Shown one piece after another: positions 43,936 through 60,495 of a DNA stretch of 64,000 nucleotides; the first letter of the stretch is position 1, and every line of letters starts with the position of its first letter. The DNA lies in the UHGV virus genome UHGV-0010228; one strand, written 5' to 3'. The position numbers and the translations under genes are program-made. The stretch is from a virus. The notes below the pieces were generated by a model. It was not told the DNA's origin, did not search any database, and saw only the letters and a program-made list of their open reading frames with translations.

Positions 43936-44817
43936 ATGGGAATATTATCTGATTTTGAATATGAAGTATATGAAGCTGAGGAATCTTCAGTGGTAATATC
44001 TGGAATGAATGCTAAATTTGCTAATAAAATAGCTCATAGAATGCCAGAATTAACTAATGGGGATAAGCTTAAGAAAGAAGCTAAAAAGCTTTATAAAGAT
44101 GATCCAGAAGGTGCAATTGCTAAAATGGAAGAAGCACTTGGCTTGTATAGTAAATTATTAGCTAGAATTAATAAACACGATCAGGATCATCCTAATGCTG
44201 CTAAATCGTCATCAAAAGCATATATTGAATACTGTGTTGATTCATGTAGAGCATATTTAATTAAATGGAAAAATCATGATGAAAGAAAAATAAAAGCGAT
44301 CATTAATGATTTAAGAAATGAAAGAGAATCAATTGGTAAATCAACTGAAAGTTGGTACTCTGATTATGGCTATTTAGATACAGAAGCAACAGAAGGACTA
44401 AAAAATAAGATTCTTACAACGACAGATGATTTTAAGAATAAATTTGCGAAACGCCCATCAGGATTCCGTAGTGATGAAGATGCAGTATGGGCATTCTTAC
44501 TTAGTTCTATAGATCAGCATTCTGTTGATAGTAAAGATCTTCAAACAACATTAGATAGTCTTGATAGAGACATTAATTATTTTTGCTATAAAAAGCAGTT
44601 AACCTGTGCTATGAAAAGATATTCAAATTTAATCGACTCTTCAAATAAACCAACCGGTAAAGTTGTACCATATGCAATACTAAATAAGCATGAAAAACCA
44701 TATATGGTAGTATGTATGTGTAATGGTAAATCTGGCGGATTTGCAATATCATATGTATATTCAGTAATTAATGAGGAGCCTCGTAAATCTCAGCTGTTAA
44801 AATTTTTATATGAATAA
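43936..44817 (+). CDS. hypothetical protein, MGILSDFE-leader family
   Basis: 293 aa; N-terminus MGILSDFEYEV shared with 44864(-), 28511(-) and 59779; internal AKMEEALGLYSK related to the MEGLISK motif. Confidence 0.55.
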   Translation: MGILSDFEYEVYEAEESSVVISGMNAKFANKIAHRMPELTNGDKLKKEAKKLYKDDPEGAIAKMEEALGLYSKLLARINKHDQDHPNAAKSSSKAYIEYCVDSCRAYLIKWKNHDERKIKAIINDLRNERESIGKSTESWYSDYGYLDTEATEGLKNKILTTTDDFKNKFAKRPSGFRSDEDAVWAFLLSSIDQHSVDSKDLQTTLDSLDRDINYFCYKKQLTCAMKRYSNLIDSSNKPTGKVVPYAILNKHEKPYMVVCMCNGKSGGFAISYVYSVINEEPRKSQLLKFLYE

Positions 44818-44821
44818 TTAA

Positions 44822-44863
44822 TAATAAACGTGTAATAGGATTAATCCTATTACACGTTTATTA
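44822..44863. terminator. bidirectional terminator
   Basis: taataaacgtgtaataggattaatcctattacacgtttatta. Confidence 0.7.
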
Positions 44864-45454
44864 TTAATTAATTTCTGGTCGTTCATATTCTAATAAATAC
44901 TTAACTAATCCAGATTTATTATACCTGAGAACTCTAGGTTTTCCATATTCTTTCTTTGGTTTCAATACAAATAAATATTTTGTTTCATTCTCATACATAT
45001 CTGATGATGTTATAACCCCAACAAGTACATCATTTACTGTGATATAATTTAATTTAAATGATTTTCTATCAAGATCTCTATTTTTCTTCTTTTCTGGATC
45101 GTAATTTAATTTTTTATTTTCATCATCATATGATAAAGCAGCATTCATATCTGCGATTTTTTCATCTTTAATCAATCCACGAACATAATCTTCCATATAT
45201 TTTTTAGCATTTGGATAGAACCTGTCTACTCCTACACATTTAATGTATCTACTAATTATCTCCTCATTATCTAATTCATAAATTTCATCGAATTTGGCTC
45301 TTTTAGCAGCATTCATTTTACGGTGATTATTGATTTTTTCTTTAAATTTACTAATTAATCCTTCCATAGCATCAATTTCTGAATATTTATTATCATATGA
45401 TTCTTTAGCATCTTTGATCAATTCATTATTTTCAAAATCAGATAATATTCCCAT
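44864..45454 (-). CDS. hypothetical protein carrying both MGILSDFE leader and EIDAMEGLISK motif
   Basis: 196 aa, AGGAGGTAATT RBS; MGILSDFENNELIKDAKESYDNKYSEIDAMEGLISKFKEK. Confidence 0.55.
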   Translation of the reverse strand: MGILSDFENNELIKDAKESYDNKYSEIDAMEGLISKFKEKINNHRKMNAAKRAKFDEIYELDNEEIISRYIKCVGVDRFYPNAKKYMEDYVRGLIKDEKIADMNAALSYDDENKKLNYDPEKKKNRDLDRKSFKLNYITVNDVLVGVITSSDMYENETKYLFVLKPKKEYGKPRVLRYNKSGLVKYLLEYERPEIN

Positions 45455-45469
45455 AAGTTAATTACCTCC

Positions 45470-46756
45470 TTATTTACGCTTTTCTAATTGGTTCATAATT
45501 CTAGCAACATTTCTGTCACTAATTTTTTTATCATAGTTTTTAAGACTAGAACCTTGATTCACTAAATATACATCTTTCATTTTCGTTAAGTCAACAGGTT
45601 TAGTCATTGCTGCACGATCATTAGTCCTTTGATGATCTGAATTCAATATCATCGCAATAAATTCAGAGCAGAAAAGTTTACCTTTAGATTCAGGATTCAT
45701 TCCCATAGCATATTTCACTAATCCTCTAAGATTATATTTTAATTCTTTATCGTTTTTCATGATATTATATAAATTCTTTTTCATTTTAAGATATTCATCA
45801 TGTGGTACAAAAACTGCATATAATGCGTACTTTATGTCTCGTTCCTTAAAGAAAGCGTCTCGAATATCTTCCCTAGTAAACCCATTTGCAAATGGCTTAT
45901 TAGAATATTTAGTACCAAATGAAAATAGTGAATTTAGTGATGTATCAAATGATAATGATGAGTGTGAATATTCATCTTTAGTATACTTCTGTATAGCATT
46001 ACTAAGAGGTGTACCAGTGTGCATAACCAAAACATATACAGGATATAATTTTTCTTTGTAAATTTCATTTTTCGAAGATTCTATAGAATCTTTCTTATAT
46101 GATTTAAGCTTATTTTCAAATTTATTAAGAGCATTATACATATCCCTATACCATGTTGATCTCCAATTTGATCTTGGCTGACCAACATCTTCGAAGAATC
46201 TTTTTAAGCGATTGCTTCCTTCACGAATATTTGCTCTCTTATTTGATGTATATTTAGAAGTCTCTTTAACTATAATAGGATAGTTCTTTACAATATCAAA
46301 TAGTGCAGGATTCATGAATATATCAATGCTTTCAATAACCATTCGCTGATGATTCGAATTTAAAATAAAATGCATAAATTCACGTATAGCAGCAGATCTT
46401 TTAAATATCACTGTATATCTATTAATATCTTTATTATATTTACAGTATTTTGATCCTGGGCCTTTTATCCATGCAACTAAATATTTCGCAATCGGATTCT
46501 TCTTTGATCCTTCATTATCTGTCTTATTTAAATATCTCATAATATCTTCAGCACTAAACCAATCTAAATTAATATGATCACATTTAAATTTATTAGCAAT
46601 TCTTGAAGCAGTTGTACTTTTACCTGATCCAGATAATCCAGTTATAATAAGAACTTTTGCTTCACCACTAACCCATCTATCGTAATCTACATACATATCA
46701 GTTTCAGAGAATAATTGTCGTACCTCTAACGCAGGATCGTAAATCTTATTTTCCAT
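45470..46756 (-). CDS. P-loop NTPase/kinase-like protein (N-terminal Walker A) with C-terminal domain containing a His...Cys-Ser-x-Phe motif (possible permuted papain-like hydrolase)
   Basis: KVLIITGLSGSGKSTTASRIANKF Walker A resembling T4 Pnk/AAA_33 kinases; C-terminal VLVMHTGT ... GKLFCSEFIAMIL; AGGAGGTATAATT RBS. Confidence 0.6.
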   Translation of the reverse strand: MENKIYDPALEVRQLFSETDMYVDYDRWVSGEAKVLIITGLSGSGKSTTASRIANKFKCDHINLDWFSAEDIMRYLNKTDNEGSKKNPIAKYLVAWIKGPGSKYCKYNKDINRYTVIFKRSAAIREFMHFILNSNHQRMVIESIDIFMNPALFDIVKNYPIIVKETSKYTSNKRANIREGSNRLKRFFEDVGQPRSNWRSTWYRDMYNALNKFENKLKSYKKDSIESSKNEIYKEKLYPVYVLVMHTGTPLSNAIQKYTKDEYSHSSLSFDTSLNSLFSFGTKYSNKPFANGFTREDIRDAFFKERDIKYALYAVFVPHDEYLKMKKNLYNIMKNDKELKYNLRGLVKYAMGMNPESKGKLFCSEFIAMILNSDHQRTNDRAAMTKPVDLTKMKDVYLVNQGSSLKNYDKKISDRNVARIMNQLEKRK

Positions 46757-46840
46757 GAATTATACCTCCTCAATTAATAATAAGTTTAAACATTTGAGTA
46801 AAATATCAGATAATATCTCGAAGATAGGAGGTTAAAATAG

Positions 46841-48202
46841 ATGGAAGAAAAAATATTAGAAATGATGGATTCTGCATTTTTTGATTATAGTGTTGGAAAA
46901 TACTCACGTGATACTTTTGAAGAAAGGTTTGCTAAGATTATTTCATCACTACCATTAAAGAAAAAGAAGAATTTCACAGTTTCTATAATAAATGAAAAAA
47001 ATCGTGAACCATTTTTTGGTTTTAGAATATTTCCAATATCATCATCAATGGATGAAATTGCTAATATAATGGCAGATGAAAAGATTTCATTTAAAGAGTT
47101 ATATAAGCGATGGAGTAATATTGATTCATGGTATATGGAAATAGATGCTAACGTATTTAATCGAACTGTGTGTAATTTCACTCCTAAAGAATTAACAGCA
47201 ATGACTTTACACGAAATAGGTCATACTATATATTCAGATAAATTTTTAGTTACATTATATAATGCATTTAAAGAAGCTAGAGTAAGAATGAAGATTGCGG
47301 ATAAATCTTCATTAAAAGTTTTGTATTCATTATATATGGTACCATTATCTATAGGATGTATGCAGAGAGCATTTGTTAACTCTAAAAATGAAGTAGAGAT
47401 CGAATATTACGCGGATAAAGTATTATCAAAATATGGATATACTGATAGTTTATTATCTGCTTTAGATAAAGTAATTAAAGCATATGGATCTCAGAATCAG
47501 AGTAATGCATCAAAAATGAACGATATTATACAGTCAATTCAGTGGTGTGATCTTAATATAACAGATCTTAATAGACGTAAAGAAAAACTTAAGGATGAGT
47601 TATATTATCAATCTTTAAAGAATGAATCTCATTATTTTAAGGCAATATGCTTCCAAATCTTAAATAAGTTTGGAGTAAGATTGAGAGAAAGATACACAGG
47701 AACTGTAGTTGAGTGTACTTTAGATATTATGTATCCGGATTCTAGATATGGTAACGATAAAGTTCCATGTATGGAATATTATAAATTAATATTAGATCCT
47801 GTTGAAAATGGTAAAATACTTAAGGCGTGGGATTTAAATAGATCTCATTATGGAGTAAGCGAAGCTATCGAAGGTATATTTGGTAGTAGAAATAGAAAAA
47901 ATAAAAAGATCAAATTGCCTTCAACTAGACAATTTGATGAAATTGAAGTTCAGATAAATTACAATATAACTAATTATCATGATAAGTTATTCATATTAGA
48001 TCAGATATATGATTTATCTGATCAGATCGATCTTTATGAAGAAATTTATCAGAATGATCCAGTTGTTATGAAACGTGATAGTGGTAAGATATCTGAATAT
48101 CGAAAGAAATTAGCCAAATTAAGAGCTGCGGTATTACAACAGCCATTACCAGATAATGAATTGAAGTTATTTGTAAAATATCCTAAAGGATATGAAGGAT
48201 AG
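46841..48202 (+). CDS. putative zinc metallopeptidase-like protein (HExxH)
   Basis: LTAMTLHEIGHTIYSDKF contains the zincin HExxH signature; TAGGAGG RBS; no other family assignment possible by eye. Confidence 0.55.
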   Translation: MEEKILEMMDSAFFDYSVGKYSRDTFEERFAKIISSLPLKKKKNFTVSIINEKNREPFFGFRIFPISSSMDEIANIMADEKISFKELYKRWSNIDSWYMEIDANVFNRTVCNFTPKELTAMTLHEIGHTIYSDKFLVTLYNAFKEARVRMKIADKSSLKVLYSLYMVPLSIGCMQRAFVNSKNEVEIEYYADKVLSKYGYTDSLLSALDKVIKAYGSQNQSNASKMNDIIQSIQWCDLNITDLNRRKEKLKDELYYQSLKNESHYFKAICFQILNKFGVRLRERYTGTVVECTLDIMYPDSRYGNDKVPCMEYYKLILDPVENGKILKAWDLNRSHYGVSEAIEGIFGSRNRKNKKIKLPSTRQFDEIEVQINYNITNYHDKLFILDQIYDLSDQIDLYEEIYQNDPVVMKRDSGKISEYRKKLAKLRAAVLQQPLPDNELKLFVKYPKGYEG

Positions 48203-48213
48203 TCATTCATTTG

Positions 48214-48267
48214 TTTTTTTTTTGTTATACATTATATTAATATTATATAATATAAGGAGGTATTATA
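48214..48267 (+). promoter_or_regulatory. conserved leader/promoter block of the MFDLYNTLESYNI family (copies also at 54269-54326 +, 50291-50350 -, 56033-56087 -)
   Basis: T-run then TATACATTATATTAATATTATATAATATAAGGAGGTATTATA immediately before ATG; four near-identical copies. Confidence 0.5.
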
Positions 48268-49386
48268 ATGTTTGATTTATATAATACATTAGAATCATAT
48301 AATATAATAGATAATGATTATGCATATGAAGGTATTATAGATAAAGTAAAAAATGTAGGTAGTACTATATGGGGATGGTTAAAGAAAATATGGGAAACTA
48401 TAACGAATAAATTAGGAGAATTAGGTAAAAAGATAAAGAAAGCGTGGGAATCTGTTAAAAACTTTATTAAAAATAGAGGAAATAAATCAATAGAAGAAGA
48501 AGATGAAGAAGAACCATATCCAGAAGAAAATGATGAAGATAATTTATCTACTTCTACATCTAATAAATTTGCTAAAGGTAGAGGTAAGAATATAAATAGA
48601 AGAAGATTAAAAAGTGATGATAAAGAAGAAGATAAGTCAGTAGTTAAAAGTTTACCAGAGCCTGAAAAGACTAGTAGATATAAAAGTCCTAAATTAAAAG
48701 GCGGCAAAGTCACAGTAAATCCAGATCCAACCTCAGATGGAAATAAACCTAGAACTCGTATAGTGCGAGCTGGAAACGGTACAAATTATAATGCAATATT
48801 TCATCCAGATGGGAGTTTGAATAGAGAGTTAAATATAGCTATGAAGTTACTTTTAGAAGTGGCAACTCAGATTAATGTTAAATCTAAATGGTACAAAGAA
48901 TTATTATCAGTATATAGTGCTGAAGCAAAAATTGGTGATAAAGTTGGCGATGCAGAAGATCTTGAAGAAAAAACCAACAAAATGCTGCAAAATTCACCCA
49001 TAAATAATGAAGATATTGACGATTATTTAAATGATCTTGAAAATAAAATTTCAAATAAAGGTTATATTAGATTAACATCTAAAATTCCAGGAGTTGAAAA
49101 ATATTATCAAATGATATATACATCAATTTCGAAATTACAACAGTCAACTGGAGTTATATTGAATCAAATAAATAAAAAACTTGGTGAATTTAAAAGTAAA
49201 CATAGTAAATATGAATTTACGGCTAAGAATAGTAATGGCATAAATATGGAGTATATTCGCTTTAAAGGTAGTAAAAGTGGTTCTGATATTCATAAGAGTA
49301 TCCTTGATAATACTAAAAAACTTTCATCATTATATAGTCGTATCATAAGCATTACTTCTAAAATGATAATATCACCAAGCAAATAG
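48268..49386 (+). CDS. hypothetical protein, MFDLYNTLESYNI-leader family member 1
   Basis: 372 aa; N-terminus MFDLYNTLESYNIIDNDYAYEGIIDKVKNVG shared with 49442, 50388, 54327, 56128; Lys/Glu-rich middle. Confidence 0.6.
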   Translation: MFDLYNTLESYNIIDNDYAYEGIIDKVKNVGSTIWGWLKKIWETITNKLGELGKKIKKAWESVKNFIKNRGNKSIEEEDEEEPYPEENDEDNLSTSTSNKFAKGRGKNINRRRLKSDDKEEDKSVVKSLPEPEKTSRYKSPKLKGGKVTVNPDPTSDGNKPRTRIVRAGNGTNYNAIFHPDGSLNRELNIAMKLLLEVATQINVKSKWYKELLSVYSAEAKIGDKVGDAEDLEEKTNKMLQNSPINNEDIDDYLNDLENKISNKGYIRLTSKIPGVEKYYQMIYTSISKLQQSTGVILNQINKKLGEFKSKHSKYEFTAKNSNGINMEYIRFKGSKSGSDIHKSILDNTKKLSSLYSRIISITSKMIISPSK

Positions 49387-49441: not shown

Positions 49442-50293
49442 TTAATCTACAACTTCAGCTTTGACATCAATTGGTTCATCACTAGTTACTTCTGCTCCAG
49501 ATAGATATTTTACAATATTAACAATTATCTGATAAGATTTTTTTAAATTATTTGAAATATTATTTATATGCTCAGTAGCATATTTATTGAATGCAGCATT
49601 GTAATCTTTAGAATTCTCAACTGTTTTATTGAAGTTAATTGATTGGACTACTTTCATATGAGCATCGCACACAGTATATTGATTGTGTAATACAGTACCA
49701 ATACTTTTTAAATTGTGTTCAGATAGCATATAATCATGTGGGGCCAATTTCAATTGCTCACTAACAACACTATACGCATGATCACATCTATCCTTATATT
49801 TACGAATATCTAACACAATATTTTTACTAGATGATTCACGAAGAGCATCCGATTCAACTTTATTGATAGGTACTTCCCCACCCGTGGATGGGTCTGATGT
49901 TTTTGTGATATATTTACAAATCCCTGCTAAATATTTATCTCCCCCAACTACAATTTTTAAATATTTAGCACTGAGATTAACCAATTTTATTATTTTCTTA
50001 CCAGCGTGAATCTTGTTCATCTGTGTACTAGCAATCTTTCTACCTATTTTAGTATTACTAAGTTTAGATTTTAGCGTGGTAATTCCAGTTTTTAATACAC
50101 TCATAATCTTTTTTATAATACCAGCAATAAAACCAACTGCTCTATCTATTATTTTAGCAATTTTTGATGATGCGATCTTAGTTAATTTACCACTTGCAGC
50201 TCTAGCATCGTTATCAATTTCTAAATACCTTTCATATGCATAATCATTATCTATTATATTATATGATTCTAATGTATTATATAAATCAAACAT
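49442..50293 (-). CDS. hypothetical protein, MFDLYNTLESYNI-leader family member 2
   Basis: 283 aa; MFDLYNTLESYNIIDNDYAYERY...; conserved leader block upstream on minus strand. Confidence 0.6.
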   Translation of the reverse strand: MFDLYNTLESYNIIDNDYAYERYLEIDNDARAASGKLTKIASSKIAKIIDRAVGFIAGIIKKIMSVLKTGITTLKSKLSNTKIGRKIASTQMNKIHAGKKIIKLVNLSAKYLKIVVGGDKYLAGICKYITKTSDPSTGGEVPINKVESDALRESSSKNIVLDIRKYKDRCDHAYSVVSEQLKLAPHDYMLSEHNLKSIGTVLHNQYTVCDAHMKVVQSINFNKTVENSKDYNAAFNKYATEHINNISNNLKKSYQIIVNIVKYLSGAEVTSDEPIDVKAEVVD

Positions 50294-50349
50294 TATAATA
50301 CCTCCTTATATTATATATAATATTAATATAATGTATAATAAAAAAAAAA

Positions 50350-50375
50350 CAAATGGTCTATTAATAGACCATTTG
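50350..50375 (-). terminator. rho-independent terminator for minus-strand gene
   Basis: caaatggtctattaatagaccatttg preceded on + strand by A10 (T-run on minus strand). Confidence 0.7.
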
Positions 50376-50387
50376 TTTAAATTTACT

Positions 50388-51086
50388 CTAAGCTAATAAC
50401 CTAGAAGGATCCTTAGTACCACCAGTTATAATAACCATTGACTTACTAAGGAATGAAATTCCGGCAGTAATTGATTTTTTAATATATCCGATATATGCAG
50501 TTAAGTTATGACTATCATTTGACTCATTGTATGAACGCTTAGCCTGAACAGCTTTTGTTAAAGTACTTTCAATTGTAGAATCTAAGCTACTAAGAGTCTG
50601 GATACCACTTGAAATTGCAGCTGCAAACTTATCTAAACGTGCAGGTGAATATACATTATTAGCAGTTCTCTTACCAACTTTTTCTCCTAATTCATTCATT
50701 GAGGTTATGTAATTAGAAATTTTATCTCCATAATCTTTTGCATTATCCGCAAAATTCTTACCAGACTTTAATCTACCACTAACAGCCTTAATAGAACCAG
50801 AAATTAACTTTACACCTTTAAGTGACATCTCAACATACTTAATTGGTGCTTTATCATTAATCTTTTCCTGAATCTTAGTTCCGATCTTAGTACTCTTAAG
50901 CTTATTGCTTAATTTGCTAAATTTTTCCTTTAATCCGTTAATTCTGTCTCTGAACCATTTCATTACTGCGGCAACAACTTTATTACTTTTAATTGCAGAA
51001 CCTGCATTAGAAAGTTTATCTTTAATTCCTTCTTCTGCAAGATCGATCTTATAAGATTCTAAAGTTTCAATTACATCGAACATCAT
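50388..51086 (-). CDS. hypothetical protein, divergent member of MFDLYNTLESYNI family (MMFDVIETLESYKIDLAEEGIKDK)
   Basis: 232 aa, AAAGGAGG RBS. Confidence 0.55.
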   Translation of the reverse strand: MMFDVIETLESYKIDLAEEGIKDKLSNAGSAIKSNKVVAAVMKWFRDRINGLKEKFSKLSNKLKSTKIGTKIQEKINDKAPIKYVEMSLKGVKLISGSIKAVSGRLKSGKNFADNAKDYGDKISNYITSMNELGEKVGKRTANNVYSPARLDKFAAAISSGIQTLSSLDSTIESTLTKAVQAKRSYNESNDSHNLTAYIGYIKKSITAGISFLSKSMVIITGGTKDPSRLLA

Positions 51087-51098: not shown

Positions 51099-51908
51099 CT
51101 ACCACTCAAAATCGTCATCGAAATCATCATACTCTTCAAATGCAGAATCGAAGTCGTCATCAAAATCAAACCATGACTCTTCAGCATCTTCATCATCGAG
51201 ATCTTCATCGTCGTCATCTTTCTTCTTTTTTCTACCAAAAAGCTTCTTTCTCTTTTTAGACTTCTTATTATCTTCATCATCCGATTCATCAGAATCTACA
51301 TCTTCATCGAGATCTTCATCTTCATCATCGCCCTTTTTCTTTTTCTTGAGCTTTTCCTTAGCCTTACTAATGATACCTTCCATTGCAAGAAGCATAACTT
51401 CTTCATCATCAAGACCTGTAGATTCACCAGCAGCATGAACTAAAGTTCCTGCCTTACCCCAACTGCCATCTCCAGGGAAATCAGTAAGTTCCTGATATCT
51501 TTCTTCAGCAAGAGTTTTACAACCAGCAAGAAGTTCTTTAATAGCAGCTAATTCTTCATACTCAATATCATCACTGTCGCTAACAACTCCAGCAGGCATA
51601 AGCTTAAGAGCTTTACACTGAGCCTTTAACTTAGCTGCACCATTTGATATGATAGCGTGAGCATCTTCCTTACTAATAAGGCCTGAATTACATTCTCCAT
51701 AAGCATTCTGAATTTCGGTGATTAATTCATTAAATTCAACAATCTCGTGAGATATATCATCTAAGAAATTCTTTGCCTGTTCAGGAGTTGTAAGACTAGA
51801 AGCAATATTACTTCTAATGATCTTTAACAGATCGCTAACTCTCGTTTCTGCATGACAGAAGAAACCTTCATCAGCGATATCAAAATCATTGAAATCGTCG
51901 TAATACAT
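51099..51908 (-). CDS. hyper-acidic protein with alternating poly-Lys and poly-Asp/Glu blocks and internal LLAMEGIISK motif
   Basis: 269 aa, AAAGGAGGAATAAA RBS; C-terminal KKKKKGDDEDEDLDEDVDSDESDDEDNKKSKKRKKLFGRKKKKDDDDEDLDDEDAEESWFDFDDDFDSAFEEYDDFDDDFEW. Confidence 0.6.
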   Translation of the reverse strand: MYYDDFNDFDIADEGFFCHAETRVSDLLKIIRSNIASSLTTPEQAKNFLDDISHEIVEFNELITEIQNAYGECNSGLISKEDAHAIISNGAAKLKAQCKALKLMPAGVVSDSDDIEYEELAAIKELLAGCKTLAEERYQELTDFPGDGSWGKAGTLVHAAGESTGLDDEEVMLLAMEGIISKAKEKLKKKKKGDDEDEDLDEDVDSDESDDEDNKKSKKRKKLFGRKKKKDDDDEDLDDEDAEESWFDFDDDFDSAFEEYDDFDDDFEW

Positions 51909-52131
51909 TAATTTATTCCTCCTTTTTAATAGGATATTTAACTTTTAAAATTTATATTCTTTTAAATTTTTATTTATATGTTTTAGCATATAAAACCAAT
52001 TAATATTTAGTTCTAGAGTAATTCTTACATCTATAAATATGAGCAAATTATAAATCGTACTATAAATAAATATATTTATATATTTATTTATAGCAACTTA
52101 TTGTGTTGTCTATAGAAAGGAGATTTATAAT

Positions 52132-54222
52132 ATGGCTTTTTATAGATGTGATAGAGGATTAGGATTTGATACTAGTAATAGTACAGGAAATAGTAGTGAT
52201 GTATTGTATCCAATTAAATATAATGAATATTCAACGGGACAAATTCGCAATATAATCTTAACTACATTACAATCAAATTTCGCTTTTGAATCAACTTTCT
52301 GTTATAACTGTTATAATAAGAATGATTTTAATTTTAAATTAGATTGTAATGAAACCGACATTAGAAAAGATGTGAGCATATATGATATTGTAGGATCACG
52401 CAAATTTGTACCTAGAGTAAATTTTAAAGAATTTAGATCTAGTAAATATTCCGAAATATTTAACGGCATTAATGATACATGTGATATTATTAGTGATATA
52501 TATGAAGATTCTATATTTATATTTATAGCTCTAAATACAACAATAATTTTAGTGATTACTGATATGAATTTAAACATCATTTCAAGAGAAAAGTTTGATA
52601 TCTCAAATCTATTTATAAATTTGATATCTGAGAATTATAAAAATGAAATTGATAACATTTGGTCAGAAATTAAAAAATATATTAAAAATCCGATATCATA
52701 TGCTTTTAATGATTGTGATGATGCTGAAGTTCCAACATTAATCGAGTCTCTATTTAAAATAAAAAAATCGGATTGTTCTTATTTTAAATATCTGCCAATA
52801 ATTGACAAATTTGATATTGATCTTAATGATAAATTTTCTGATAGCTTTATACACTCAGATTTGGTCGATATGCGTATAGGTACAGGTCAAAACGAAATAA
52901 TTGACAATCTCATATTCATTGACGATAAGATTATATTTAAAGGATTTATCTACGTAATACTCCGCACTGAAGATGATATCCCTATAAAATTGGAATATAA
53001 GTTTAAAAATGCTGATCAGACATATTTAAATACATCTATTAAATATTCAAGGAGATCATCTAGTATTATATCATATACATATATCCTCGATGTACTATAT
53101 GAATATGATATAATATCAAAAAAAATAACTATCAAAAAACATAATCGTCTAAACCCAAATACAGATTCTATTAATGATATTTATGCTATGGAACCATATA
53201 TTACACAATATCAAACACTAAGATCATACGACCCTAACAGATTTTCTAAATATGTCAATTCAACGGGTAAATACATACAATCTTCTCAATTGTATTATTT
53301 TTATTCTCCAGACAAGTGTCAATTAATACAATATGACATTGCAAGCTGTTCTATAATTTCTACTACAAAAGATGATAAGGTAAGTAATCCAACATATGAT
53401 AGTTTTTATTATGATACGAAATCTAATATAATATATATCGTTGATACATATTATGATTCTTCGATACAGGTCAGCCGTTTCACGAATAATTTAGATAAGA
53501 TATCATCGTTTTCTGTATCAATGAACGGAATCGAGTTGGATTCTCCTTTTTTAAAAATAAACGACCCTAATTTGACAAACACGGCATATAGAAAAATATA
53601 TTTACGAAATGCCAGTACTAATAATACTGCTAAATCATATGGTATATTCGTAGAGAATGACATAATTAACTTTTTTGTAACTATAGATCGAGTATGTCAG
53701 AATCCTATTAAAATTGTTGGAAATTCATGTCATATTGCCAATCTTAGAATTTCGTGCGATACAGGCAATCTAATCGATATACAATCTCCAAATACTCAAC
53801 AGTTTAACTCGAACTTTAAAAATGTTCAATGTCTCAAGACATTGAACACCGAGATAATGTCAACTAATGACATTATTGATCATATATTTAGAGTATCGGT
53901 ATATCGTATTTCTAATGAATACGTAGGACGTTTACACTATCGATTAGGGAAGATGAGTGACACATATAAATTAAATATTGATTATATATTTACCGGTGTA
54001 TATAACACGATATGTCATATAATTATTCGAAATAATGGATTGTATTTCACATTACTAATAAAAAATCAATATTCGAATCTAACCGATTATGAAAATATCA
54101 ATTCTTATAATGTCATAATTAATCCATCTACTCTTTATCTTCTTAATGATTATGATACTAACTATAATGGTTATAATATAGATTCTTCTAATTCTAATTA
54201 TACAGATTACTATTTTAATTAA
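52132..54222 (+). CDS. large Asn/Tyr/Ile-rich hypothetical protein (possibly structural)
   Basis: 696 aa, AAAGGAGA RBS; low-complexity composition; no motif. Confidence 0.55.
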   Translation: MAFYRCDRGLGFDTSNSTGNSSDVLYPIKYNEYSTGQIRNIILTTLQSNFAFESTFCYNCYNKNDFNFKLDCNETDIRKDVSIYDIVGSRKFVPRVNFKEFRSSKYSEIFNGINDTCDIISDIYEDSIFIFIALNTTIILVITDMNLNIISREKFDISNLFINLISENYKNEIDNIWSEIKKYIKNPISYAFNDCDDAEVPTLIESLFKIKKSDCSYFKYLPIIDKFDIDLNDKFSDSFIHSDLVDMRIGTGQNEIIDNLIFIDDKIIFKGFIYVILRTEDDIPIKLEYKFKNADQTYLNTSIKYSRRSSSIISYTYILDVLYEYDIISKKITIKKHNRLNPNTDSINDIYAMEPYITQYQTLRSYDPNRFSKYVNSTGKYIQSSQLYYFYSPDKCQLIQYDIASCSIISTTKDDKVSNPTYDSFYYDTKSNIIYIVDTYYDSSIQVSRFTNNLDKISSFSVSMNGIELDSPFLKINDPNLTNTAYRKIYLRNASTNNTAKSYGIFVENDIINFFVTIDRVCQNPIKIVGNSCHIANLRISCDTGNLIDIQSPNTQQFNSNFKNVQCLKTLNTEIMSTNDIIDHIFRVSVYRISNEYVGRLHYRLGKMSDTYKLNIDYIFTGVYNTICHIIIRNNGLYFTLLIKNQYSNLTDYENINSYNVIINPSTLYLLNDYDTNYNGYNIDSSNSNYTDYYFN

Positions 54223-54227
54223 TAAAA

Positions 54228-54278
54228 AATACATACTATCTATAATAGATAGTATGTATTTAGTTTAGTTTTTTTTTT
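54228..54278 (+). terminator. rho-independent terminator
   Basis: aatacatactatctataatagatagtatgtatt ... T10. Confidence 0.7.
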
Positions 54279-54326
54279 CATATACATTATATTAATTATA
54301 ATTTATAGAAAGGAGTATATTATATA

Positions 54327-54896
54327 ATGTTTGATCTATATAATACACTTGTTGCATATGAGGGATTATTAAAGAATGCATATAATAGTTATAAAACTAA
54401 TATAAACAATGCAAATCTTATGCGAAAAATCGAGAAAACTATTGAAAAGTCATCTGAGTTTTATTTGAAGTTTATTGGTGAGGGTGATGATAAAACTAAA
54501 GAGGAAGCTGCTAATTTTTTTGAAAAGTGGGCACAATTATGTTACTCCAATACGATTAAATTTAATAAATCAATATTTTTAAAAGGATATGTAAATAAAT
54601 ATGAGTATTTACTAAAGGGTGGATATGCTGAACGATATGGATTAACATCTGAAACCCAATTAAATCCGGATAATCCCATGATGCAAGATATATTAAATGA
54701 TGCTTATCTTGGAATTATTGAAAAGCTATCATATAAAGGTCAACTTGTATATCTCATGGGCACTCCAGATAACTATATTTATTACTTTACTGATGATAAA
54801 GGAAATTTTGTCATGAAATATAATGATGAAATGTTGGATGAAATTATAAAGTACTATCAGAATAATATTGATGAGTATAATGCAAAGTTCAAATAA
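54327..54896 (+). CDS. hypothetical protein, MFDLYNTL-leader family member (MFDLYNTLVAYEGLLKN)
   Basis: 189 aa; conserved leader block upstream. Confidence 0.55.
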   Translation: MFDLYNTLVAYEGLLKNAYNSYKTNINNANLMRKIEKTIEKSSEFYLKFIGEGDDKTKEEAANFFEKWAQLCYSNTIKFNKSIFLKGYVNKYEYLLKGGYAERYGLTSETQLNPDNPMMQDILNDAYLGIIEKLSYKGQLVYLMGTPDNYIYYFTDDKGNFVMKYNDEMLDEIIKYYQNNIDEYNAKFK

Positions 54897-54910: not shown

Positions 54911-55405
54911 ATGAATGATATAATAGTAATGGAAGGATTAATTTCTAAAATGAGAAATCGTTTAAAATTGAAAAAGATTAAAAAGAATTCTGCACCTTAT
55001 AAAGAAATAACTCATGATGAATTTATAAAAAATTATTTAAATAAAATTAAAAAATGCCAAAATTTAATGTGGACAAATATGATGAAATTAAAATCGAAGT
55101 ATCCTATGATAACTAAAATGATTTCTAAGCGTAGTGATAATGAAATGATAGTTCCGGTAAATGATGTTCATATAAACACTTATGTGTATTTAATAGATTA
55201 TGATGGATCAAATGTTGAATCACATGAGAAGCAATATTCAAATTTTGATAGATCTGAATTAGAACCAGCTCTATCAGAAATTGCTAAGGAATGTGTTGAT
55301 AAAATATTTGGTAATGATTCAAATATTGGTTATGATGAAGGTGGAGATTATAAAGAAGTCTGCTATGGAATTGTATTTAGAGATACTTTTATACATGTAA
55401 ATTAA
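54911..55405 (+). CDS. hypothetical protein, MEGLI-leader family (MNDIIVMEGLISK)
   Basis: 164 aa, AAGGAGGTATTAT RBS 14 nt after previous stop. Confidence 0.55.
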   Translation: MNDIIVMEGLISKMRNRLKLKKIKKNSAPYKEITHDEFIKNYLNKIKKCQNLMWTNMMKLKSKYPMITKMISKRSDNEMIVPVNDVHINTYVYLIDYDGSNVESHEKQYSNFDRSELEPALSEIAKECVDKIFGNDSNIGYDEGGDYKEVCYGIVFRDTFIHVN

Positions 55406-55410
55406 TAATA

Positions 55411-55448: not shown

Positions 55449-55456
55449 TTATTAAT

Positions 55457-56032
55457 TTAGTTTCTTTTTCCATATAAGATCTCGGACAATTCATCTGAAC
55501 CCATATTCGGAATTTGAATCACAAGAGGGCCACCATCCCAATCTCCACCATATTCGTATTTCATATTATCGATACCATATTTATCAATTGCCGATTCAAT
55601 AATCATATCAATTGCTTTCCACGTCTGATTATATCTAGGATCATCGCCCCATTCTCGAACATTTATAGATTTATCATATTTTAGTATTTCATAAATGTCA
55701 TAATCTATAATGGTATATTCAATATTATTGTCATATGTTGATAATACATTTTCGTTTTCGACATATCCAACTAATTTAAATATATATTTAGCTTCTGGGT
55801 ATTTCTTTATAAGATTATTATATTCTCTTTTAACTTCATTATATATCTTAATAAATATAGGTTTATATTTAGATCTAAATTCATCTAAAGATATATTTTT
55901 AATATTATTAGATTTAGAATTATTATTAATATATCTAGATTTAGTCTGATTATTAGTAGCGTAAGCCTTATTTTTATTTATTTTATCTCTTAATCTCTTT
56001 ATTAATCCTTCCATTACTATTATATCATTCAT
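55457..56032 (-). CDS. hypothetical protein, MEGLI-leader family (MNDIIVMEGLIKR)
   Basis: 191 aa; first 10 residues identical to 54911 product; conserved leader block upstream. Confidence 0.55.
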   Translation of the reverse strand: MNDIIVMEGLIKRLRDKINKNKAYATNNQTKSRYINNNSKSNNIKNISLDEFRSKYKPIFIKIYNEVKREYNNLIKKYPEAKYIFKLVGYVENENVLSTYDNNIEYTIIDYDIYEILKYDKSINVREWGDDPRYNQTWKAIDMIIESAIDKYGIDNMKYEYGGDWDGGPLVIQIPNMGSDELSEILYGKRN

Positions 56033-56087
56033 ATATAATACCTCCTTATATTATATATAATATTAATATAATGTATAATAAAAAAAC

Positions 56088-56116
56088 AAGTGAATGACTA
56101 ATATTAGTCATTCACT
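56088..56116 (-). terminator. rho-independent terminator for minus-strand gene
   Basis: aagtgaatgactaatattagtcattcact preceded by A-run on + strand. Confidence 0.65.
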
Positions 56117-56127
56117 ATTATTAACTA

Positions 56128-56979
56128 TTATATTGCCATCATCTTTGCAATTTCATCTGGGTTAAGAATTTTAATTTTAGTCATAGTCGTAAGTGTCCAT
56201 TTACATAAATTTGAAATTTGTGCGGTTATATTTTTTAGCGCTTTAGTATATTCATCCGTTAATTCATGAATATTCTCAAATTTAGTTACTCGATTTTCAA
56301 TCACTTTAAATTCATATACACATTTCATTATATTTGTATATACAGCTTTATACTCATCGAGTGAATCGACTAAATCCACCTCAAGAGTAAAAGTGTCAAC
56401 TTCATCAAGAGCATTATTAAGTCTGTTAATAATTACTGGAGCTGACTTTGTATCATAATGAATAAGATAGTCTCTTACATCAGCTTCAAACTTTCCAGTT
56501 TTATATAATTCATTGGGATTATCTAAAAATTTTACATAATTTCGGGTATATTGAAGAGTTTCTCTTAGCCATTTATTTGTCTGTTTAAGTTCATACTTTA
56601 TTTTATCAGTCAAAGTTTTAATTTTTTCTTTCTCTTCTTTTCGAGTTCTTTCCACTTCATCAACTATATTACGTCTCTTTCTGTTATTTACTCTTTTTTG
56701 TTCATTCGGTTTATTATCTTCATTACCTCTAGTTTCACTCTCATTCATTTTTTCATTCGTCTTACCTTTCATATTCTTTATCATTAAATATACTTTCTTT
56801 ATCTTTCTACCTAATAATATAAATCCATTCTTTATTCCTTCCCATATCTTCTTTATAACAGACCATATACCTTTACCTACATTCTTTACTTTATCTATGA
56901 TACCTTCATAAGAGGGTTCTAATTCTCCCCCCCCCCCAATTATATTATATGATTCTAATGTATTATATAAATCAAACAT
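56128..56979 (-). CDS. hypothetical protein, MFDLYNTLESYNI-leader family member with homopolymeric Gly-encoding G11 tract
   Basis: 283 aa; MFDLYNTLESYNIIGGGGELEPSYEGIIDKVKNVGKGIW; the GGGG is encoded by an 11-nt C run on + strand (56927-56937). Confidence 0.55.
   Translation of the reverse strand: MFDLYNTLESYNIIGGGGELEPSYEGIIDKVKNVGKGIWSVIKKIWEGIKNGFILLGRKIKKVYLMIKNMKGKTNEKMNESETRGNEDNKPNEQKRVNNRKRRNIVDEVERTRKEEKEKIKTLTDKIKYELKQTNKWLRETLQYTRNYVKFLDNPNELYKTGKFEADVRDYLIHYDTKSAPVIINRLNNALDEVDTFTLEVDLVDSLDEYKAVYTNIMKCVYEFKVIENRVTKFENIHELTDEYTKALKNITAQISNLCKWTLTTMTKIKILNPDEIAKMMAI
56927..56937. repeat. 11-nt homopolymeric C/G tract inside coding sequence
   Basis: ctccccccccccccaat; the only long G/C homopolymer in the AT-rich window. 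Confidence 0.9.
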
Positions 56980-56991
56980 TATAATACCTCC

Positions 56992-57849
56992 TTAGAGATT
57001 CTTCATGAAGTCCATAATTTCACGATTATATTTTAATTCTGGCTTTACAAAGATTCTACCTTCATCAGTTCTCATTGTAATCATATTAGAAGATCTATCA
57101 TATGCAACAGATTCTAGAGCTGGATTCATCTCATCAATAACCCTATTAACTCTTTCAGACTTACTTAATACTATATCAGTAAATGATTCCATGACAGTTT
57201 CGAATTTATTTTTAGATACAATATTCTTAACTGGAATATCCATGTCCATATATGCATTAGAATGTGATGGTAAGTATACTCTATCGTAGCAAACCAATCT
57301 ACCAGGACCCATAACATCTATTGTGCCATCAGGGTTTTTTCTCTGAGGTACTAACGATCTAGCAGAAAATGCTCCTCTAATGCCTTGTAATATATTTCTC
57401 ATAAATTTATATCCAGGAGATCCAACACCTTCATCAAGCGTCTCTACAACACCATGGAGTTCTTTACCTCTCCACTCTAATGATTTAATAATATGAGAGC
57501 AATTATTAGGATCTATATTAGCAATTCTCTCCAATGAAACTTCACCAGTTGTTGGAATTGGATGTCCTGCTTCGCCTGGCCATCCACCTGCTTTAGTTAA
57601 GAATTCCTGTACGAATTCCTGAGCTAACATAGTTCTTACATGATCTGCATTCCAAAGTCTTCTATTTCTATTTCTTCCATAGAAATCCTGTAAGCAAGTT
57701 GAGAATCTTAAGTAATTAAGTCCATTTTCATTTTCAACATGTTTGAGTATTTCTATATTATCATTCTGTGGCATAGCAGCTTCCATTACCACATAATAAT
57801 CTAAATAACGTTCATCATTAGGATTAAATTTCGGCATAATGATAAACAC
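56992..57849 (-). CDS. prohead core protease (T4 gp21-like serine protease)
   Basis: WPGEAGHPIPTTGE ~ T4 gp21 LLGELDHPAD (catalytic His); FSARSLVPQRKNPDGTIDVMGPGRLVCYDRV ~ gp21 GFSLRGIGKEVRNEDGTINKQLIQMVCYDAV (catalytic Ser region); start codon uncertain (track start GTG). Confidence 0.75.
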   Translation of the reverse strand: MFIIMPKFNPNDERYLDYYVVMEAAMPQNDNIEILKHVENENGLNYLRFSTCLQDFYGRNRNRRLWNADHVRTMLAQEFVQEFLTKAGGWPGEAGHPIPTTGEVSLERIANIDPNNCSHIIKSLEWRGKELHGVVETLDEGVGSPGYKFMRNILQGIRGAFSARSLVPQRKNPDGTIDVMGPGRLVCYDRVYLPSHSNAYMDMDIPVKNIVSKNKFETVMESFTDIVLSKSERVNRVIDEMNPALESVAYDRSSNMITMRTDEGRIFVKPELKYNREIMDFMKNL

Positions 57850-57952
57850 CGTCCTTTCTTTTTTGAATTATAGCATTGTTAATCCATAAGAATATAGAGA
57901 TTTAAACCATTAAATAAATCTAAAATAATAAAGAAAGGTGGGATAAAATCGA

Positions 57953-59761
57953 ATGACACCTTATAATAAACAACCAGAATTTTCTCTGGATGATAGTGAT
58001 GTGTTAGATAAATTAATAGATTATTGTACGAAGGATACCTCTAACCTAAATTTAAAAAATGATTTCTTTAATAGGGTTTATGATATTCTTCTTAAAGCAA
58101 CGCCATCATATAATTCATCTATATGCTCTTCCAGAAATATAGATTTTATATTATGGCTATATCGATTTGAAAAGGTTGGTAATCCCAATAGTACTCCGAA
58201 TTTATTAAATTTATATTTTAATAAAATTTACGAATTTCATTTAGACTATGGATTACAAAAATCAGTAGATTTAATAAATTCATTTTGTAGACGTTCAATA
58301 GATGAAACATCTAATCTTAAAAGTGAAGAGATAAGATTTTATGCACTGCTTTTCATACTATATTATATATATTCATTATATGATGAGCAGGAAAATAATT
58401 TATACATAGAAACTTTAATAAAAACTTTTATGGATAATCCACATACGCAAGATGTTATGTTTATATATATTGAGGATATATATATCCCGAATGATCGCAT
58501 TATTAATTATACTAATTTAAATCAGTACTTATTCCATAATGGTATCATATTTAAATCAGTAGAGAATTTAACAATAGAAAATCTTATGAAAAACACATTA
58601 GACGGATCTATTAATAATATAGATCCAGAGTATAATAAAATATATACTTTATTATGTATGAAAATTTGTGATATATTTAATTCTCGAAATCATATTCTTA
58701 AATTCATTGATGATGCAATAGATAATTTTTTAATATATCGATCTAGGATTAAGATTAATAATGCTAAATATGAAAATTTTACAACATCTGATTATGCAAC
58801 TGGATATCTTGCAAGTACTATGGATGCTAGAATTGCCAGTTATTTGAAAACTGCAAATATGTATAATGATGATATCTATAAAAAATCTTCATTAGAAAGT
58901 TTCATATCAGATTTTCATTATAACATAATTCCAGAATTTAAATCATATATAAAAGATGATTATAAAGATAAGGAAAATTATATCATAACATCTTTCATAT
59001 ATGAAAATTTAAAAGCTTTTGATTTGAGAGATAATTCAGAAATTAAAGAATTTTTTGATGAATATCTGCCATCAATGGAGTGTACCATTCCATTACCAGC
59101 ATATGAAGCAACTAATGATGATATAGATCCAGAACCAAGTAGTGAGGCCCCGGTTGATGAAGATGATTTAGAAACTCCAACATCAAATGGTAATTATAGA
59201 AGAAAGAAATTTAAAAAGGATAAATTGAAAAAATCAGTTGCTAGTAAAACAATGGGTGCAGAAAAGAAAATATATAGTGCTTATCGTCAGTATAAAGAGA
59301 AAGAAACTGCTGTAGATAATCAGTTAGTGAAAATGACTAATGTTATGAAAGATAAGTTTAAGGGTAATGTTAGAGAAGAAATCATTGGTGGTAAAGTATG
59401 GACACCAATAACTATACTTAAAAAAGCTCTAGGAACTGCAGCGATATTTTCCTTTTCAAAGATAGGTGGTATATTAGCATTTATAGTTGGGCATTATACT
59501 AAGAGAAAAGTAAAGAATAAAGAACGAAAAAAGATAATTCTTGAATTGGAATTAGAAATTAAAATGTTAGAAGAAAAAATAGAAGATGCTAAAGGCGATG
59601 GAAACCGTCAGGCTAAATATGCAATGATGCGCACTAAAGCTGAATTGGAAAATGCTGTTGAAAAGATTAAATTTGGTCTAGAAGCTGATGATAAAGCTAT
59701 ACAGGCAGGAAAGAATGTAATAAAAGGTGGAGTAAATGCTGCACTTTCAAATTTAAAATAA
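57953..59761 (+). CDS. hypothetical protein with C-terminal coiled-coil and hydrophobic segment (possible head assembly/scaffold-associated)
   Basis: 602 aa, AAAGGTGGG RBS; C-terminal KAELENAVEKIKFGLEADDKAIQAGK; GTAAIFSFSKIGGILAFIVG hydrophobic stretch. Confidence 0.55.
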   Translation: MTPYNKQPEFSLDDSDVLDKLIDYCTKDTSNLNLKNDFFNRVYDILLKATPSYNSSICSSRNIDFILWLYRFEKVGNPNSTPNLLNLYFNKIYEFHLDYGLQKSVDLINSFCRRSIDETSNLKSEEIRFYALLFILYYIYSLYDEQENNLYIETLIKTFMDNPHTQDVMFIYIEDIYIPNDRIINYTNLNQYLFHNGIIFKSVENLTIENLMKNTLDGSINNIDPEYNKIYTLLCMKICDIFNSRNHILKFIDDAIDNFLIYRSRIKINNAKYENFTTSDYATGYLASTMDARIASYLKTANMYNDDIYKKSSLESFISDFHYNIIPEFKSYIKDDYKDKENYIITSFIYENLKAFDLRDNSEIKEFFDEYLPSMECTIPLPAYEATNDDIDPEPSSEAPVDEDDLETPTSNGNYRRKKFKKDKLKKSVASKTMGAEKKIYSAYRQYKEKETAVDNQLVKMTNVMKDKFKGNVREEIIGGKVWTPITILKKALGTAAIFSFSKIGGILAFIVGHYTKRKVKNKERKKIILELELEIKMLEEKIEDAKGDGNRQAKYAMMRTKAELENAVEKIKFGLEADDKAIQAGKNVIKGGVNAALSNLK

Positions 59762-59778
59762 GAAAGGAGAAAATATAA

Positions 59779-60495
59779 ATGGGTTTAGTTAATGATTTTC
59801 TCTTTACTTACGCATTAGAAGCTGATGATATTACAGGAGAAGCTCAGGCTGGTGCTAGACAAATTGCCGGTGGACCAAATCCTGCCGGTGGACCAGGTGC
59901 TAATGCAAATGTTGGAGATGAACCAGATGACATATCTAAAACAGATGATATATTTGGTACTGCAGGATCAGATGATGATCCAATAAATGGAAATACTAAT
60001 AATGCTCAGAATTTAAATCAGAATCCACAAAATAATATGAATAATAATGATCCATTTGGTAATGATTCTAATAATATGGGAAATAATGATCCCAATGATG
60101 GTGGATTTGGTGATACAAATAATTCTTCGATGGATGATGGATTTGGAGAAAATAATGAGCAGGATAAATCCGATCCTCCATATTATGATAAGAATAAGTT
60201 AAAAAATAATATGCTGTATTTATACAATTTAACAAATTCATCAAATGATGCTATTGTAGAATTAAGATCAAAATTGAACGATCCTAGTAGTATCAAAGTA
60301 TGTAATATGGTAAATTCTAATTTAACTGCTCTTAGCGATTGTATATATGAAACAATTACTGATAAAATAGCTAATGCTACATATCAAGATATGCTTAGAG
60401 AGTATATATCATTTAAACGTATATATGACCTATGTACGGAAATAATGAATAAACATTTTGATAATGCGATTAAAGATAAGAAAAAGAAAAAATAA
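59779..60495 (+). CDS. low-complexity Asn/Gly/Asp-rich (disordered) protein with MGLVNDF leader
   Basis: 238 aa, AAAGGAGAAAA RBS; MGLVNDFLFTYALEADDITGEA...; NNMNNNDPFGNDSNNMGNNDPNDGGFG. Confidence 0.5.
   Translation: MGLVNDFLFTYALEADDITGEAQAGARQIAGGPNPAGGPGANANVGDEPDDISKTDDIFGTAGSDDDPINGNTNNAQNLNQNPQNNMNNNDPFGNDSNNMGNNDPNDGGFGDTNNSSMDDGFGENNEQDKSDPPYYDKNKLKNNMLYLYNLTNSSNDAIVELRSKLNDPSSIKVCNMVNSNLTALSDCIYETITDKIANATYQDMLREYISFKRIYDLCTEIMNKHFDNAIKDKKKKK

Follow-up and report, generated by a model that had tools for sequence, protein, structure and literature searches.

Shared N-terminal leaders around the prohead protease gene of a human-gut jumbo phage: candidate capsid-targeting propeptides on a strain-variable set of proteins

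Our analysis of a 64,000-nucleotide stretch of the virus genome UHGV-0010228 (the window) showed that about a dozen genes, mainly at positions 43,936 to 60,495 and around a gene for a T4 gp21-like prohead protease, encode proteins with short, shared N-terminal leaders that end at a conserved glutamate. This cluster probably encodes internal head proteins of a phiKZ/AR9-type jumbo phage, with the leaders acting as capsid-targeting propeptides. Its products would be core, inner-body or ejected proteins: the leader would recruit each of them into the assembling prohead core, the gp21-type protease (56992..57849) would cut the leader off after conserved glutamates, and the mature protein, beginning G-[IL]-[IL]-x-K, would remain within the capsid. 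The cuts we propose (marked by a vertical bar) are TLE9|SY and [A/S]-x-E|G in family A, [V/A]-M-E|G in C-type and A-x-E|[S/A] in B-type leaders, and the mature N-termini foreseen are GIIDKVK, GIKDKLSNAGSAIK, GLISK, GLIKR and SYNIIDNDYAYE. A preliminary description of this DNA had already suggested that the leaders are packaging signals and propeptides of a diversifying group of capsid-targeted internal-body or ejected proteins. The sequence tests reported here support that suggestion: each of those able to refute it turned out in its favour, the two named in the description among them. From these tests we infer that the proteins are targeted to the capsid, cut at the proposed sites, contained in the virion and ejected.

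Leader classes, their conservation and their likeness to phiKZ-type internal head proteins

The three leaders of the preliminary description, A, B and C, were all recovered in the open reading frame (ORF) translations, with motif counts at least 80-fold over chance. Leader A heads five genes (48268+, 49442-, 50388-, 54327+ and 56128-, named by lower coordinate and strand; 0.002 expected) and leader B, MG[IL][LV][SN]D[FL], heads four (43936+, 44864-, 59779+ and 28511..29029-; 8e-5 expected). The C module is N-terminal in three proteins (36405+, with AME|GLIKK, and 54911+ and 55457-, both with VME|GLI) and internal in 44864- (AME31|G) and 51099- (AME177|G), as had been listed; the copy assigned to 43936+ is weaker (ATE153|G). 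The combined pattern [AVST].EG[LI][LIK].[KRN] occurs at 10 sites where 0.12 are expected, with at most 2 in 2000 shuffles, and all 10 lie inside long ORFs, with 0 in other frames.

One cleavage-like module is common to leaders A and C, so that the term "leader classes" fits the three groups better than "gene families". Leader B is carried by four unrelated bodies, and leader A by the bodies of 54327+, P0006 and P0007/P0013 as well as by bodies resembling the Pfam family PF12699; P0007 and P0013, proteins of relatives, represent yet another body type behind the same leader A. In the relative L016, a homologue of the family C body (E = 4e-6) begins with an A-like leader, MTSFEKSLELYAANE|G. The bodies had been described as unrelated or highly diverged. 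They are unrelated in 54327+ and the B-leader proteins, where the leader is the sole shared part, and related in others: 48268+, 56128-, 49442- and 50388- are mutually alignable over 60-138 amino acids (aa), comprising the leader and an amphipathic K-rich region, and 54911+ and 55457- align over their full length. Judged by these alignments, most of the bodies are true, diverged paralogs.

Relatives of the window were found in ENA and Logan assemblies, and distant homologues were collected by exhaustive profile search. The leader architecture is retained on diverged bodies in P0014 (MTNYAEVLESYLIAEE|GLL), P0015 (...TLESYLIPAEE|GFM), P0016 (MYDIASTLESYTISDYDIAIE|GIG) and P0018 (MFDVAMTLEGY...ASE|GIK). 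M1, L8, E9, Y11 and the P1 Glu are invariant among 12 family A sequences, and across 19 distinct A-type leader sites P3 is Ala or Ser in 19 and P1' is Gly in 17. Lineages whose protease is 58-64% identical to that of the window keep the leader and the E|G boundary, around the protease, on bodies that are 20-25% identical. One of these is the 30 kb contig L016, with a protease at 64% identity. Four paralogs with MYDIASTLESYTIPEYEIATE|G are distributed to either side of its protease gene, and its orthologue of the B-leader gene 28511..29029- (59% identity; MGLLSELN...AIE|S) also keeps both leader and site. Within the window, 50388- and 54327+ encode the same peptide through synonymous codon changes. 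The preliminary description had named mere recent duplication, with no E|G boundary in homologues, as one result that would speak against it; the boundary is kept in P0014, P0015, P0016, P0018 and the L016 paralogs, and this, together with the synonymous changes, argues that the leaders are not just products of recent duplication. The leaders are near-identical within one genome and about half identical between genomes, with the core motif fixed, a pattern that suggests concerted evolution under functional constraint.

The leaders also behave as modules within proteins, in line with the shuffling that had been proposed. In L016, the homologue of the family C body also contains a complete internal A-type leader (...ALESYLIDEDEFAME|GV). 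This 352-aa protein (17772-18830, minus strand) joins two units of leader plus body head to tail, as a natural polyprotein, and the internal leader, at residues 176-199, lies between the two bodies, a position that fits a cleavage module. The E|G module likewise lies inside the window proteins 44864-, 51099- and 43936+. Among homologues of 44864- (78-96% identical), MGILSDFE and IDAMEGLISK are invariant and the spacer between them takes most of the N-terminal substitutions.

The [A/S]-x-E of family A follows the S/A/G-x-E rule of phiKZ-type prohead proteases, as the preliminary description had noted of A-x-E and S-x-E, and both predicted family A sites align with cuts verified by mass spectrometry in SPN3US: gp54 is cut at E124 and E137 (peptide SLWDDIK) and gp53 at E125 (AQE125|GWKETLK, peptide GWKETLKDLFER) (PMC10052503). 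Proteins of the PF12699 family, to which these belong, undergo proteolysis during packaging, and several of them are injected (10.1101/2024.03.24.586471). In hhalign, 12 family A sequences compared with phiKZ gp93-95 and SPN3US gp53/54 gave a 53-column block at 50% probability (E = 1.6e-4; 9% with 6 family A sequences) that covers both cut sites: TLE|SY...AYE|G falls on A-x-E|x-Y...[S/A]-x-E|, and the [A/S]-x-E that is invariant in family A lines up with gp53 AQE125|G and gp54 ARE137|S, and the upstream site with gp54 AQE124|S. Three divergent family A proteins, 50388- (20.7 bits, E = 2.7e-4), P0014 (20.2 bits, 4e-4) and P0015 (17.0 bits, 3.6e-3), match the PF12699 profile in one register, with residues 13-14 on profile positions 88-89, right at the x-E|G site; the other family A members gave no match to this hidden Markov model (HMM). 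When an HMM of family A was run against 104 phiKZ and SPN3US ORFs, the top three were gp93, gp53 and gp95. The N-termini of phiKZ internal proteins, MSLLKMLDKLSLE|S (cut after E13), ...DSLEGY and ...DSLEDY, resemble ...TLESY; the E13|S14 cut of phiKZ gp93 is confirmed by cryo-EM (PMC11297242), and SPN3US gp53 and gp54 have identical first 15 residues with AXE/SXE motifs, which their authors call similar to a capsid-targeting sequence (CTS) (PMC5694885). Weakly but consistently, these comparisons point to family A as remote, short-propeptide relatives of the PF12699 proteins, below the usual threshold.

The enzyme that would make these cuts is encoded within the cluster, as had been recognised beforehand. 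The product of 56992..57849 (minus strand; true start probably the ATG at 57837) matches PHROG 3014, a head-maturation protease family, at 1e-10, and a profile of three orthologues finds T4 gp21 (PDB 5JBL) at E = 4.8e-4 over a region spanning the catalytic Ser; its Pfam S77 score is 22.4 bits, under the cutoff of 27. Two motifs near its C-terminus, TVME|SF and P[AV][LM]E|S, are invariant. On these profile matches we assign it to the T4 gp21 / phiKZ gp175 type. The order protease (-), 602-aa protein (+), acidic 238-aa protein (+), capsid protein (+) is that of AR9 gp113-gp116. The major capsid protein (60601..62358, plus strand) shows 20-25% identity to its counterparts in AR9/PBS1, Staphylococcus jumbo phages and phiR1-37 and has an invariant A-x-E104|S105, a candidate maturation site just beyond residues 87-90, where AR9-type capsid alignments start. 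The ANE37|GVN to which the preliminary description had pointed is present and was rejected as a conserved cut site, as it reads NQS-GVN in the relative L001.

The window, with 29% GC, belongs to a novel human-gut jumbo phage of the phiKZ/AR9 type, and also encodes a multisubunit RNA polymerase (RNAP) beta subunit, a split DNA polymerase, topoisomerase II, a GroEL-like protein and several virion proteins. When isolate phages were searched, megablast with the complete cluster gave 0 DNA matches and tblastn with 50388- gave none at E <= 10; identical or near-identical proteins come instead from human-gut assemblies, among them one 256.5 kb contig. Samples in which these contigs occur include Hadza and the MERR22 / ERZ27287442 sets. 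No name is attached to any of these cluster proteins in public records. Degenerate leader DNA patterns gave 0 matches in IMG/VR for leader A and 0 for leader C, and a leader-only profile found one 54-aa fragment in a 5.8-billion-protein database, in a word-index search that is ill-suited to 40-aa queries.

Expression cassettes, exchange between strains and alternative readings

Upstream of each independently transcribed member lies a terminator hairpin followed by a T-run, a promoter-like 24-mer and the ribosome-binding site (RBS) AAGGAGGTATTATA. Copy 1 (48203..48267, +) has half a hairpin, the T-run, TATACATTATATTAATATTATATA and then AAGGAGGTATTATA; copy 2 (50294..50378, -; hairpin 50347-50378) and copy 3 (56033..56116, -; hairpin 56089-56116), which drives a C-family gene, have the exact 24-mer and the RBS; and copy 4 (54227..54326, +; hairpin 54227-54261) has ATACATTATATTAATTATAA and the RBS after its T-run. 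Of the four copies of the promoter block that had been reported, three are thus exact (48226+, 50314- and 56054-, against 0.03 expected), and the fourth, at about 54280-54303 before 54327+, has diverged. Including the start of the leader, the signature reads GTTATACATTATATTAATA...AAGGAGG...ATGTTTGAT, and from the T-run through codon 21 the DNA of 48268+ and 49442- is identical. The operon-internal members 50388-, 56128- and 54911+ have the leader without the promoter block. Terminator-like hairpins number 24 in the window against 3.7 expected, and a sigma-70 scan found 138 sites where 140 are expected, without enrichment. The phage has genes for an RNAP of its own, and the cassette core TACA-N6-TA is one base off the AR9 late consensus AACA-N6-TA (PMC7598289). 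The 24-mer was rejected as a general promoter consensus of the phage, its exact core being found solely at the four cluster sites.

Comparison with related genomes, which the preliminary description had recommended for presence/absence variation, revealed such variation directly. Strain L002, 98.8-99.1% identical to the window on either side of the cluster, is without 54327+, 54911+ and 56128-. The breakpoints fall at the edges of hairpins and RBSs, the left one right after the hairpin of copy 4; the 55457- of L002 is just 82% identical, with flanks at about 99%. A second locus was compared between L004 and L009. Identity there is 97% across a 595-aa gene, the cassette and the leader, and the similarity ends right after TAT GAA GGT (Y-E-G), beyond which the bodies (P0006 and P0004) and the downstream genes are unrelated. 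Terminator hairpin, T-run, 24-mer, RBS and leader would form a portable DNA cassette, in which homologous exchange would cause bodies to be gained, lost or replaced behind a constant loading signal.

Several observations weigh against the interpretation of these proteins as proteolytically matured head contents. All PF12699 matches are under the Pfam cutoff of 27 bits, the best of them scoring 20.7; the reverse search, with HMMs of the known internal proteins against the window ORFs, fails to separate family A from background; and K-rich helix sequences are prone to composition bias. The AlphaFold2 model of 50388- is all-helical at low confidence (predicted local distance difference test score 52.6), and Foldseek of this model against BFVD gave no match at E <= 1e-3. 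In place of E|G, 49442- has E|R and its orthologue P0011 has E|Y, and about ten residues past the proposed cut are also conserved (GIIDKVKNVG), which could mean that the motif is a structural or binding element and not a scissile site. Leader-A genes also occur at the second locus, beside very large fibre-like proteins, and some of the cargo may be non-head. Finally, the phage is known from metagenomes only.

Some of these points would suit a leader that is an uncleaved targeting or assembly tag, or an amphipathic helix binding capsid, scaffold or DNA, or one that is cut at TLE|S alone. Conservation beyond the proposed cut (GIIDKVKNVG, GLISKxK), the missing P1' Gly of 49442- and the fact that the part of phiKZ gp93 after E13|S14 remains bound to the capsid shell (PMC11297242) are all in keeping with this idea. 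We nevertheless think it unlikely, given that the P1 Glu and the P3 Ala/Ser obey an experimentally defined rule and align to the gp53/gp54 cuts (PMC10052503), and that copies lying inside a protein, between two bodies, are most easily understood as sites of processing. That the products are not head-internal at all, with the N-terminus routing them to the tail or baseplate, the membrane or an early host-takeover complex, could be argued from the position of P0006 and P0004 next to fibre-like proteins of 1423-1843 aa and from weak PHROG tape-measure matches of 48268+ and 56128-; the latter are limited to the K-rich helix and at noise level, whereas PF12699 is the sole family matched in a consistent register and the cluster encloses protease, scaffold-like and capsid genes in two lineages, which makes this alternative very unlikely.

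The remaining alternatives deny the peptide itself a part. If the conserved unit were mainly an expression or recombination cassette at the nucleic-acid level and the peptide a by-product of gene conversion, one would readily account for the stretch of identical DNA in 48268+ and 49442-, for the three exact 24-mers and for strain breakpoints at cassette edges, and T4-type PeSL (promoter early stem-loop) cassettes behave likewise (PMC2839356). Such an explanation seems quite improbable to us: the peptide is kept despite the synonymous changes in 50388- and 54327+, TLESY...x-E|G is kept in phages in which both leader DNA and protein sequence differ, and the operon members 50388-, 56128- and 54911+ have the leader and no promoter block. 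As a description of the DNA, it is compatible with the propeptide reading. It is scarcely credible that the leaders are functionless, neutral remnants of recent tandem duplication with fast-diverging bodies. They are indeed near-identical within a genome, with several copies adjacent or inverted neighbours, but distant homologues keep the leader, which largely excludes this possibility; M1, L8, E9, Y11 and the P1 Glu are invariant despite 58-64% protease and 20-25% body identity, and the leader sits on unrelated bodies (P0006, P0007/P0013 and 54327+).

The propeptide reading can be carried further, to a tentative and rather doubtful extension in which the terminator-promoter-RBS-leader unit is a plug-in capsid-loading adaptor: the product of any captured ORF would be packaged, lose its leader at E|G and be injected together with the DNA, the bodies would form an exchanged effector arsenal (anti-defence or takeover), and poly-G tracts (G7/G9/G11) would provide an on/off switch. 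Such tracts lie in the spacer of leader A. The G11 of 56128- (56927..56937, -; in frame, encoding GGGG) is the sole G/C run of at least 7 in the window, and L008 has a G7 (5553-5559, in frame). In two independent assemblies (L002/L003, 10003-10011) the 48268+ orthologue has a G9, which takes the body out of the reading frame set by the ATG. These runs may reflect a contingency tract prone to slippage, slippage during transcription or homopolymer sequencing error.

The leader-bearing genes and their neighbours

Among the family A genes, 48268..49386 (+, 372 aa) has the leader MFDLYNTLESYNIIDNDYAYE|G (cut at E21|G22), followed by an amphipathic K-rich helix region, and 49442..50293 (-, 283 aa) has the same leader with AYE|R, the exception to the E|G rule. 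At this site, AYE|RYLEI (50228-50233, -) seems to result from the insertion of 1 nt (GAA-A-GGTATT...) when compared with GAA-GGTATTATAGAT of 48268+ (48328-48345), and the residues that follow appear to be frame-shifted remnants of GIIDK. The most widely conserved member is 50388..51083 (-, 231 aa; MFDVIETLESYKIDLAEE|G, E18|G19), whose true start is the ATG at 51083, with RBS spacing as in other members. The minimal leader belongs to 54327..54896 (+; MFDLYNTLVAYE|G, E12|G13), whose body is unlike that of other A members, and 56128..56979 (-, 283 aa; MFDLYNTLESYNIIGGGGELEPSYE|G, SYE25|G26), with a GGGGELEPS spacer in its leader, is inserted after the stop codon of the protease gene and before the next cassette.

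The C-type genes are 54911..55405 (+, 164 aa; MNDIIVME8|GLISK), 55457..56032 (-, 191 aa; MNDIIVME8|GLIKR) and, outside the main cluster, 36405..36824 (+, 139 aa; MHNDIEAME9|GLIKK). The B leader is found on 43936..44817 (+, 293 aa; MGILSDFE...AEE|S, with the internal ATE153|GLKNK), on 44864..45454 (-, 196 aa), where an 18-aa variable spacer joins it to a C module (MGILSDFE...IDAME31|GLISK), and on 28511..29029 (-, 172 aa; MGLLSDLN...ATE|S), whose real start is 29029 (ORF 28511..29071) and which weakly matches a PHROG family annotated as virion structural protein. The fourth B-leader protein, 59779..60495 (+; MGLVNDFLFTYALE|ADDITGE|A), is acidic and N-rich, directly upstream of the capsid gene, and is probably a scaffold-like core protein; AR9 gp115 is its weak sequence homologue and its positional homologue.

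The 269-aa acidic protein of 51099..51908 (-) is a candidate core or scaffold component. Besides its internal LLAME177|GIISK it has an N-terminal IADE14|GFF, a site absent from the list in the preliminary description and kept in L016 as DIADE|GFF. The protein is highly acidic; each of its ends has repeats rich in D and F (MYYDDFNDFDIADEGFF... and ...WFDFDDDFDSAFEEYDDFDDDFEW), and its centre is poly-K/D/E. In all three lineages its gene directly precedes the family A gene of the 50388- type, the orthologues of 50388- following its homologue in L015 and L016. Two further proteins are conserved beside leader-bearing genes in L016 (444 aa and 448 aa there) and may be part of the head or an accessory module: one of 428 aa (45470-46756, -) with a P-loop kinase-like N-terminus and a C-terminal domain of PHROG 1128, and one of 453 aa (46841-48202, +).

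In AR9 (L018), the annotated virion proteins gp95 (3860-4666, -; ...LLNE|GLSNGLKKIIKKL) and gp114 (14569-15027, +; ...LLKE|GLATDV...IIKKL) have the same x-E|G-L and K-rich helix motif as the window families; we did not use this motif as evidence, since the HMM scores mostly reflect composition bias. The consensus of AR9 late promoters, AACA-N6-TA (PMC7598289), occurs upstream of the capsid gene (about 60540-60560) and of the protease gene (about 57870-57890, - strand), and may indicate AR9-like late transcription, perhaps with uracil-containing DNA.

A fourth family that shares its termini consists of the 696-aa protein 52132+ and 573-, 595- and 519-aa proteins of relatives. The first 26 or so residues are common (MAFYRCDRGLGFDTSNSTGxSSDVLY), with DNA 94-98% identical, and most members also share a C-terminal ...SSNSNYTDYYFN, with unrelated middles (window 52110-52223 and 54129-54270; L004 6174-6289 and 9671-9771; L009). 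The neighbouring 1423- and 1843-aa proteins have a related N-terminal DTSDA...DVL motif. This looks like cassette exchange in fibre or receptor-binding proteins. Another intergenic repeat, of about 75-130 nt with a long perfect hairpin, lies at 43528-43661, 42157-42258 and 1944-2018 of the window and recurs at other sites of L004-L007 with 84-94% identity.

Comparison with known packaged-protein systems

If our interpretation is correct, packaged and probably injected proteins would be predictable, in an uncultivated gut jumbo-phage clade, from M-[FY]-[DN]-x3-[TV]LE[SG]Y, a spacer and [AS]-x-E|G. Injected proteins act before phage gene expression and would be prime candidates for counter-defence, and strain-level body swaps would mark where such cargo turns over. 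The link between T4-style short CTS leaders and phiKZ-style internal head protein families bears on the evolution of giant-phage head contents, and the leader would serve as a small, naturally occurring tag by which foreign proteins could be brought into large capsids.

The closest parallel to family A is provided by the helix-rich paralog sets of PF12699, phiKZ gp92-95, 97, 162 and 163 and SPN3US gp53 and gp54. Those phages are also jumbo phages with multisubunit RNAPs and a gp21-like protease (gp175 and gp245, respectively), their N-terminal propeptides are cut after S/A/G-x-E, with family A of the window aligning at both cut sites, and the extreme N-termini are near-identical among paralogs in a family whose size varies by phage. 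The window differs in its short propeptide (12-25 aa, against 111-254 aa for most SPN3US substrates), in a P1' that is nearly always Gly, in a similarity below the Pfam cutoff, with processing predicted here, and in the presence of the leader on bodies unrelated to PF12699. Unlike phiKZ, its lineage is a low-GC gut clade closer to AR9/PBS1.

In T4, too, a short N-terminal leader (10-20 aa) is found on otherwise unrelated proteins (IPI, IPII, IPIII and Alt). A gp21-family protease removes the T4 CTS, whose last residues are x-x-E, just as the window leaders end at a Glu site and a gp21-type protease is encoded; the CTS suffices to load foreign cargo into T4 heads, and the gene order protease, core/scaffold, capsid is also shared. 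The T4 CTS is MKTYQEFIAE, in which we see by eye no likeness to the window leaders, and general PHROG and Pfam scans of the window, made without direct comparison to the T4 internal proteins, gave no match to a T4 internal-protein family. Unlike the T4 CTS, family A has two Glu sites with a variable spacer between them, and there are at least three leader classes, with leaders also found inside proteins, between fused bodies.

At the DNA level, the arrangement is reminiscent of the PeSL cassettes of T4-type phages, in which a repeated intergenic terminator stem-loop and promoter flank small variable ORFs; as there, indels between genomes of about 96-99% identity (window/L002 and L004/L009) break in the cassettes. 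The promoter here is not evidently sigma-70-like, and the window cassette, unlike PeSL, runs through the RBS into the coding leader, so that exchange would preserve the protein-targeting signal. The principle of leader-directed head loading is thus already known from T4 and phiKZ, and it is the modular, strain-variable form that is unusual. What is new is its apparent occurrence in an uncultivated gut jumbo-phage clade, the joining of T4-like short leaders to phiKZ-like and to unrelated bodies, and direct strain-level evidence that the E|G end of a leader is the exchange boundary of a PeSL-like cassette (PMC2839356).

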